From the sequence record PQ510734.1: a DNA stretch of 64,000 nucleotides; one strand, given 5' to 3'. Below are positions 3,690 to 4,052 of this stretch, one piece after another. The notes under the pieces are model-generated. The model saw nothing but the letters and a program-made list of their open reading frames with translations, was not told where the DNA came from and searched no databases. The translations under genes were made by a program, and so were the position numbers. How positions within the stretch are numbered: position 1 is the stretch's first letter; each line of letters starts with the position of its first letter. This stretch comes from Escherichia phage A6-6.

Positions 3690-4052
3690 ATGAAAGCATA
3701 TCAAATTCTTGAAGGCACACATAAAGGTACTATTTATTTTGAAGATGGTATTCAAGCGCGAATTATTGTCTCTAAAACCTTTAAAGAGGACTCTTTTGTA
3801 GACCCAGAAATTTTCTATGGTTTGCATGCCCGTGAAATTGAAATTGAAACACAACCTACAGTTAAAATTGAAGGTGGTCAACACCTGAACGTTAACGTTC
3901 TGCGTCGTGAAACTCTGGAAGATGCAGTTAAGCATCCGGAAAAATATCCGCAGCTGACCATCCGTGTATCCGGTTATGCAGTTCGCTTTAACTCTCTGAC
4001 TCCGGAACAGCAGCGCGACGTTATCGCTCGTACCTTCACCGAGAGTTTGTAA
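3690..4052 (+). CDS. autonomous glycyl radical cofactor (GrcA/YfiD-like)
   Basis: C-terminal ~60 aa [60 protein letters not shown] with RVSGY glycyl-radical motif; this half is GC-richer with CTG/CGT/CCG codons. Confidence 0.85.

Follow-up and report, generated by a model that had tools for sequence, protein, structure and literature searches.

The 3′ half of vs.6, a spare-part protein gene of T4-type phages, is probably derived from Escherichia coli grcA

The vs.6 gene in a 64,000-nucleotide stretch of Escherichia phage A6-6 (sequence record PQ510734.1; the whole stretch is referred to below as the window) encodes a small autonomous glycyl-radical cofactor of 120 amino acids, and a segment of 169 nucleotides in its 3′ half is identical to the chromosomal grcA gene of E. 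coli. We put the probability at roughly 85% that vs.6 is a spare-part protein gene whose 3′ half was derived from the host by recombination after the T4-type and RB69-type phage lineages had separated. The parts of the gene are as follows.

3690..4052, + strand: vs.6 (Y06I) coding sequence, phage autonomous glycyl-radical cofactor, 120 aa; assigned from the open reading frame (ORF), identity to T4, synteny and a match to Pfam Gly_radical
3690..3867, + strand: AT-rich 5′ half of the phage lineage, codons 1–59 plus 1 nt, GC 0.33 and GC at third codon positions (GC3) 0.19; counterpart of GrcA's disordered N-terminal half
3868..4036, + strand: patch that is probably host-derived, 169 nt with no difference from E. 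coli grcA (GrcA residues 68–123); defined by the exact run in the alignment
4037..4052, + strand: 3′ tail in which identity to E. coli is lost, 5 of 16 nt differing, all synonymous; from the alignment

Extent and composition of the host-identical patch

Over gene positions 179–347, corresponding to window 3868–4036, vs.6 showed zero differences from the E. coli grcA allele SK1144 in 169 nt. The BLAST match between the window and E. coli grcA covered 185 nt at 97.3% identity, and its five mismatches all lay within window 4037–4047. Exact runs of identity to E. coli grcA measured 169 nt in the window, 178 nt in T4, where the run extends 9 nt past that of the window, and 134 nt in RB69. In a megablast comparison of the 64-kb window with 5,426 complete E. 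coli genomes the patch was the sole match, and the corresponding stretch was present in every genome (5,426/5,426) at 95–99% identity. The C-terminal 60 residues of the window protein are identical to E. coli GrcA, and over the last 62 codons the two proteins differ by a single amino acid, I versus V, in the codon preceding EGG. Nearly the entire structured glycyl-radical domain is encoded by the patch, including the loop RVSGYAV.

The composition of the gene changes at the same place. The 5′ half has a GC content of 0.33 and the 3′ half one of 0.49, with a rise to about 0.50 at 3870, and GC3 steps at codon 60 from 0.19 to 0.45. In the 3′ half, leucine is encoded by CTG, arginine by CGT/CGC and proline by CCG. 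Within the 64-kb window, a GC content of 0.497 over 169 nt is reached only at 3866–4058, where it forms the maximum (99.96th percentile). The hallmarks of a mosaic gene are thus all present in vs.6: its nucleotide identity to one host is far above what conservation of the protein accounts for, its junction is sharp, and its composition changes in a step.

The first-pass annotation of this DNA had described a GrcA-like gene at 3690–4052, had given the C-terminal ~60 residues as apparently identical to E. coli GrcA, and had pointed to a GC-richer 3′ half rich in CTG, CGT and CCG codons; alignment and composition bear out all of these. It had also suggested that nucleotide alignment to E. coli grcA and T4 would map a recombination boundary, and the boundary falls sharply at 3868. 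Uniform composition, or identity to host grcA no higher than to other phage homologs, would have spoken against its view of the gene. The GC3 step shows that composition is not uniform and, in the spirit of the second point, identity to host grcA is far above that of phage homologs outside the T4/RB69 group.

Donor and direction of transfer

The patch of T4 was 98.4% identical to E. coli, 97.3% identical to an Escherichia cryptic-clade genome and at most 91% identical to any other genus among 80 other species. Over the same stretch, bacterial genera differ from one another by a median of 16%. From these comparisons the donor of the patch appears to be E. coli or Shigella. Another candidate donor, pflB, was rejected since it is only 80% identical.

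The C-terminal domain is nearly invariant at the protein level across all collected phage and bacterial homologs. Other phage lineages encode the same conserved protein domain (T5-like phages, Krischvirus, Karamvirus CC31, Slopekvirus, T4-like phages of Aeromonas and jumbo phages), yet reach only 72–86% nucleotide identity to the best of more than 80 host grcA genes. Selection on the protein therefore cannot explain the DNA identity of the patch. None of 43 synonymous sites differs between T4 and E. coli in the patch, and at the per-site identities of the other phage lineages (72–86%) an exact run of 169 nt would arise by chance with a probability of <1e-13.

The E. coli gene is homogeneous along its length. 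Its two halves are 0.843 and 0.844 identical to Salmonella grcA (84.4% over the patch stretch) and have GC3 values of 0.42 and 0.41. As E. coli grcA is uniform in composition and divergence and the phage gene is a mosaic, the transfer must have run from host to phage, and transfer in the opposite direction was rejected on this ground. An assembly chimera was also rejected, because the patch occurs in >640 independent genomes including the classical phages T2, T4 and RB69.

Junctions of the patch

Upstream of the 5′ junction the DNA of phage and host is barely alignable, and from codon 60 on it is identical to E. coli. No nucleotide match to the vs.6 5′ half was found in the 5,426 complete E. 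coli genomes. In a BLASTP comparison, residues 22–60 of Vs.6 aligned with residues 28–67 of GrcA with 14/40 identities (35%, E=2e-6), a weak but specific match, and the 5′ half appears to be an anciently diverged counterpart of the region encoding the N-terminal half of GrcA. The junction coincides with GrcA residue 68, the start of a universally conserved motif. Residues 61–127 of GrcA form a structured domain with the fold of pyruvate formate-lyase (PFL) residues 693–759, and residues 1–60 are disordered (PMC8683613). Given that the patch starts at residue 68, essentially the whole domain that has to be recognised by host PflA and to dock to host PflB has been replaced.

At the other end, the patch stops 7–16 nt ahead of the vs.6 stop codon, and host homology is absent downstream. 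The five differences in the tail lie at positions 171, 174, 177, 180 and 181 of the last 186 nt, and a fixed difference between the phage lineages returns in the same interval (4037–4052). The stop codon, TAA, overlaps the ATG of vs.5 (TAATG). Presumably it is conservation of the protein sequence that holds the DNA of phage and host close enough for recombination in this part of the gene.

Within the tail, the window carries three synonymous changes in 7 nt relative to both T4 and E. coli (4037–4043, TTT ACT GAA to TTC ACC GAG), two of which are also present in the sequence L102. Their close spacing points to a short tract acquired by recombination with another phage instead of independent point mutations.

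Age and distribution among T-even phages

Phage sequences were searched with a 170-nt core of E. coli grcA. Records matching at >=99% numbered 388 and those at 95–99% numbered 254, giving 642 records with at least 95% identity, T2, T4 and RB69 among them. A further 107 records, mostly from Klebsiella phages, matched at 80–90%, and only two fell between 90 and 95%. The patch is carried by most sequenced T-even coliphages. The proposal in the first-pass annotation that a host gene-conversion patch had recently entered a phage gene thus stands as far as host origin is concerned, given the 169-nt exact run, and fails for a recent event in this phage, since T2, T4, RB69 and about 640 phages in all share the patch.

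To place the patch in time, 14 copies were compared. Seven were T4-type (the window, T4, SG1 and four sequences labelled L101–L104) and seven RB69-type (F2, RB69, phiC120, MM02, ST0, L105 and L106), the lineages being assigned independently, from the downstream gene vs.5. Synonymous divergence (dS) between T4 and the RB69-type phages was 1.0–1.3 in vs.7, about 2 in vs.5, 0.36–0.50 in the vs.6 5′ half and 0.02–0.15 in the patch. Synonymous differences between T4 and RB69-type sequences were found at 12 of 37 sites in the 5′ half and at one of 43 in the patch (Fisher p = 0.0004). The 177-nt 5′ half holds seven fixed differences between the lineages, the 169-nt patch none and the 200 nt immediately downstream 41; per site, these counts differ from the patch with p = 0.015 for the 5′ half and p = 3e-12 for the downstream DNA. 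The contrast of fixed with polymorphic sites (seven and 24 in the 5′ half) against the patch gave, taken alone, only p = 0.078. T4 and L106, one from each lineage, are both identical to E. coli over positions 2–170 of the last 186 nt. Variants within the patch are private or rare and are synonymous or at third positions. Most change GC to AT, as the AT bias of the phage would lead one to expect. By these measures the patch clearly postdates the parting of the T4-type and RB69-type lineages.

The flanking genes of some of these phages are themselves mosaic in appearance. Phage F2 (L092, 1185–2087) combines a T4-type vs.7 end (0.92 identity) with an RB69-type vs.5 (0.96), and the vs.7 ends of SG1 (L097), L101 and L104 are unlike either reference in an ungapped comparison, to which indels may contribute.

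grcA-like genes in other phage groups

The grcA-like genes of other phage groups (T5-like Tequintavirus and others) have the same architecture, a variable N-terminal half followed by the conserved RVSGYAVRF...RTFT domain. They differ from the T4/RB69 group in showing mostly little or no GC3 step. Jiaodavirus is the only other group with a patch, a second and older GC-rich one. In its Klebsiella phages Shinkou (L004) and PKO111 (L094), vs.6 (1501–1863) has the same mosaic layout and the same 5′ junction with a different GC-rich patch, whose GC3 is 0.60 compared with about 0.2 in the 5′ half of the same gene. The nearest sequence to this patch was a Klebsiella aerogenes grcA fragment (159/173, 92%), which shares its LLDAVEH variant. 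No near-identical donor was found; the best of 80 sampled bacterial species reached 88–90%, and an exact 38-mer of the patch gave 0 matches in metagenome contigs. The Jiaodavirus patch may be either old or from a donor outside those sampled. Searches were also made from the host side: Salmonella grcA found nothing above 84% among all phages, its matches being merely to the E. coli-type patch, and grcA from a Klebsiella metagenome-assembled genome found no near-identical match among phages.

In Karamvirus, represented by Enterobacter phage CC31 (L107, 1201–1563) and by L108–L111, the 3′ half of vs.6 has a GC3 of 0.19–0.28 and is about 80–83% identical to any host grcA. The Enterobacter hosts have a GC3 of about 0.6, and a host patch is absent from these phages.

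Three sequences in the collection stood apart. Two have short copies of vs.6 that may be truncated at the 5′ end, an 80-aa ORF in the Jiaodavirus-type IMG/VR sequence L126 and a 91-aa call in L182 (OM632671.1, 1501–1776) that is overlapped by the call of a 685-aa upstream gene; pseudogenes, insertions or annotation artefacts are possible explanations. The third, the nominally viral contig L129 (IMG/VR UViG_2706794630_000006), carries a full bacterial-type grcA with the N-terminus MITGIQITKASNEALLN and a 3′ part 91% identical to Yersinia, and is probably bacterial or prophage-adjacent DNA and not a phage gene.

Identity of the gene and its neighbourhood

The ORF at 3690–4052 is 98.3% identical in nucleotide sequence to T4 vs.6, and the encoded proteins differ by one amino acid (T54 in the window, P54 in T4). 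The closest phage match was phage KMB23, at 99.7%. The gene order vs.7-vs.6-vs.5-vs.4-regB is that annotated in T4 and RB69. On sequence and synteny the ORF is taken to be the T4 vs.6/Y06I ortholog, the same gene in a T4-type phage (Tequatrovirus), and it is an ordinary T4-type allele. The first-pass annotation, which had mentioned Y06I as a T4 homolog, was right about the relationship and understated it.

Residues 60–101 of the window protein matched Pfam Gly_radical with 67.2 bits (cutoff 22.2). The protein also matched the nuclear magnetic resonance structure of GrcA (PDB 6OWR, E=4.6e-42) and the PFL C-terminus (PflB residues 697–759, E=4.8e-26, about 80% identity). Its best structural-sequence matches were all to the PFL family and none to NrdD. 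The glycyl loop RVSGYAV at residues 92–98 is PFL-type. A stand-alone small protein (about 14 kDa class) with a terminal glycyl-radical domain is what characterises the GrcA/YfiD autonomous glycyl radical cofactor family (TIGR04365, IPR011140), and window Vs.6 has this form.

Compared with T4 Vs.6/Y06I, the window gene has the same neighbours and the same E. coli-identical patch; the three synonymous changes at 4037–4043 and the Thr/Pro difference at codon 54 have no apparent functional effect. With E. coli GrcA (YfiD; PDB 6OWR) it shares the C-terminal 60 residues, 169 nt of DNA, the PFL-type loop and detectable N-terminal homology. It differs in an N-terminal half that is 7 residues shorter and highly diverged, and in location: vs.6 belongs to an early-gene cluster of a virulent phage, whereas E. 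coli grcA lies between ung and eamB.

Neighbouring genes and the anaerobic ribonucleotide reductase genes of the window are listed below.

3353..3682, + strand: vs.7, upstream neighbour, by synteny with T4 and RB69 (context only)
4052..4273, + strand: vs.5, downstream neighbour whose start overlaps the vs.6 stop, by ORF and synteny (context only)
21996..24280, + strand: nrdD and nrdG, anaerobic ribonucleotide reductase and activase, by Pfam NRDD (572 bits) with Gly_radical, and by Fer4_12 and Radical_SAM; outside the vs.6 locus

No Pfam family match was found for vs.7. A scan for promoters and terminators around vs.6 found no enrichment over shuffled sequences, and a candidate minus-strand terminator at 3886–3872 was discarded as merely the palindromic GGTGGTCAACACC within the coding patch. 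Two genes past vs.6, the vs.4 homolog at 4266–4532 (+) matched Pfam Acb2_Tad1_hairpin with 71 bits, a family of cyclic-nucleotide sponges that act against CBASS. As the first-pass annotation had stated, nrdD (21996–23813) and nrdG (23810–24280) lie on the same arm, and indeed the same strand, about 18 kb downstream of vs.6. T4 nrdD is split by a group I intron; in the window, nrdD (+) is one unbroken ORF of 605 aa, the intron apparently missing. It is preceded by a homolog of gene 49, endonuclease VII (21526–21999).

Predicted function of window Vs.6

T4 Y06I and E. coli YfiD/GrcA both receive a radical from the PFL activase and rescue oxygen-cleaved PFL, according to the passages of PMC8683613 and PMC13450708 that report Wagner et al. 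2001. Window Vs.6, one residue apart from Y06I, would be expected to do the same. Host PflA would then place a radical on Gly-95 of Vs.6, within the loop RVSGYAV, and the radical-bearing domain would dock into host PFL whose C-terminus had been cut by oxygen, restoring its activity. The phage would probably benefit from continued fermentative production of acetyl-CoA/ATP and formate when infected cells are micro-oxic. Formate-dependent class III ribonucleotide reductases use formate as their reductant (Mulliez et al. 1995, as cited in PMC13450708). An indirect link, in which PFL supplies formate for the reductase encoded by phage nrdD and nrdG, is plausible.

A direct link, in which Vs.6 serves as a spare part for phage NrdD and is activated by phage NrdG, is highly unlikely. 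NrdD is also a glycyl radical enzyme that is cleaved by oxygen at its glycine, and its gene lies with nrdG on the vs.6 strand. Reviews do not exclude spare parts for other glycyl radical enzymes (PMC8683613). However, the Vs.6 loop is identical to that of PFL, whereas window NrdD has RTCGYLG, of the RxCGYLG type, and the PFL activating enzyme (PFL-AE) is reported to discriminate between these loops, the E. coli enzyme activating an RVSGYAV peptide and not the class III reductase peptide RVCGYLG (PMC13450708). The Vs.6 domain shares 100% of its residues with E. coli GrcA and about 80% with PflB 697–759, and has no specific similarity to the NrdD C-terminus. Moreover, vs.6 and nrdD/nrdG are neither adjacent nor co-oriented as a unit, with many genes in the intervening 18 kb or so. 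Activation by NrdG and rescue of NrdD, which the first-pass annotation had raised for testing, accordingly seem improbable.

Discussion

We propose that the last 169–178 nt of vs.6 were probably overwritten by E. coli chromosomal grcA DNA through homologous recombination (gene conversion). Conversion would have been limited to the one segment of the gene with enough similarity to the host copy, and the patch would have arisen, or been renewed, after the T4-type and RB69-type lineages separated. Several points weigh against this reading or against the function attached to it. We know of no observation of gene conversion with the host chromosome at vs.6 during T4 infection, and host DNA is broken down by wild-type T4. 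Isolates of T4-type phages from Salmonella, Citrobacter or Yersinia still have the E. coli patch and bear no sign that those hosts have converted it, so conversion cannot be frequent. On the NCBIfam GrcA equivalog model (TIGR04365) window Vs.6 scores 154.6 bits over residues 20–120, below the 170-bit cutoff, and E. coli GrcA scores 233.9 bits; the shortfall is due to the diverged N-terminal half. The GrcA N-terminal half helps to bind cleaved PFL (PMC8683613), and with a diverged N-terminal half the details of Vs.6 binding or regulation could differ from those of GrcA. The function given to the window protein derives from its one-residue near-identity to T4 Y06I, and the benefit to the phage, including the link through formate to NrdD, is conjectural.

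Could the gene have reached its present state with no recombination? In such a history the whole of grcA was captured once, long ago, its disordered 5′ half drifted, and its 3′ half was held by purifying selection. The extreme conservation of the C-terminal domain protein and the disorder of the N-terminal half of GrcA (PMC8683613) would suit it. Selection on protein, however, does not freeze synonymous sites, of which 0/43 differ between T4 and E. coli; over the patch, bacterial orthologs are 84% identical and equally constrained phage lineages 72–86%. The jump in GC3 from 0.19 to 0.45 at the junction and a patch younger than the adjacent 5′ half also oppose such a history, and we give it next to no credence.

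Two further scenarios share a host-derived patch, homologous recombination and junctions set by where homology exists, and differ in how the patch came to be so widespread. In one, a single transfer from host to phage took place in one T-even lineage and the patch then spread by recombination between phages during co-infection, possibly with a selective sweep. We rate this at a little short of even odds. T-even mosaicism is evident around vs.6, in F2 and in the vs.7 ends of SG1, L101 and L104, and the dS of about 0.4 in the vs.6 5′ half, lower than the 1–2 of its neighbours, suggests earlier exchange of the gene. The patch is about as polymorphic (15 sites in 14 sequences) as the 5′ half, which fits one origin around the time of diversification within the lineages, and conversion by alternative hosts is not seen. 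Such spread would nevertheless require crossovers at or inside the patch edges, so as to spare the seven fixed differences of the 5′ half and the 41 downstream. By itself it also leaves unexplained why the phage consensus is an extant E. coli allele and why both alleles of that host occur intact in phages.

The other scenario has those two observations in its favour, and we consider it possible but doubtful. Repeated gene conversion from E. coli, with host DNA as template during infection, would make the 3′ half of vs.6 follow the host: the chromosome would repeatedly overwrite the patch within existing homology, with fixed junctions and near 100% identity to current alleles, and a gene of a virulent phage would evolve in concert with one of its host. 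The patch is far younger than the adjoining 5′ half, as such renewal would predict, and T4 and L106, members of both lineages, have no differences from E. coli over positions 2–170. Private, third-position, mostly GC-to-AT variants are what decay between resets predicts, and the identities to host are bimodal, with only the two records between the 642 and the 107. The centre of phage variation, its consensus, is exactly an extant E. coli allele. There are two common E. coli alleles, with T or C at site 42 (C in the K-12 lineage), and each is found intact in phages: T2, T4 and many others match the T allele at 100%, and 30 records including AR1 and Kha5h match the C allele at 100%. Jiaodavirus, with the same 5′ junction and a different patch, implies at least one independent replacement from a host. 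Against this, the shared polymorphism is a single transition site at which a G state also occurs in phages, so that homoplasy is plausible. Counts of differences from E. coli, 0–6 per phage with a mean of about 1.7, are not clearly over-dispersed, and T4-type isolates from Salmonella, Citrobacter or Yersinia show no conversion toward those hosts. Private phage variants, such as those of Salmonella phage SG1, matched the alleles of the isolation host only at background level. The Jiaodavirus patch, 8% from the best donor found, is not being refreshed, and Karamvirus and Krischvirus lack a patch. The data fit either renewal from the host on more than one occasion or spread between phages, and we place single transfer followed by spread slightly ahead.

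In cyanophages, psbA is a host-derived auxiliary metabolic gene that exchanges segments with host genes. As a phage copy of a host metabolic gene, vs.6 would likewise help a host enzyme to stay active in the infected cell, and it carries evidence of intragenic exchange between the host and phage copies. It differs from psbA-type genes in that just one half of a very small gene resembles the host, at 100% identity to the present-day host over about 170 nt, and the other genes of the window phage have no nucleotide similarity to the host.

What vs.6 is, which family it belongs to and what it does biochemically are already known from T4, the window contains no new system, and the patch counts as recent only when set against the split between phage genera. 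We found no discussion of the nucleotide-level identity of vs.6 and grcA in the searchable literature, which excludes Wagner et al. 2001 and the 2003 T4 genome review, and it may have been described before. One stretch of 169–178 nt is base-identical to the E. coli chromosome in hundreds of isolates of two genera, amid neighbouring genes that are synonymously saturated. If the patch is renewed from the host, a virulent phage that destroys host DNA would still copy from it at the single locus where the two share nucleotide homology, and its spare part would track the current GrcA/PFL allele of the host, as Klebsiella phages would do independently with another allele. In that case vs.6 would provide a naturally occurring readout of recombination from host to phage in the wild. 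Re-templating of this segment by the host is a testable and moderately interesting idea. The gene offers a convenient natural marker for the frequency of recombination between virulent phage and host DNA, and for the rate at which host-like sequence decays under the mutation bias of the phage.

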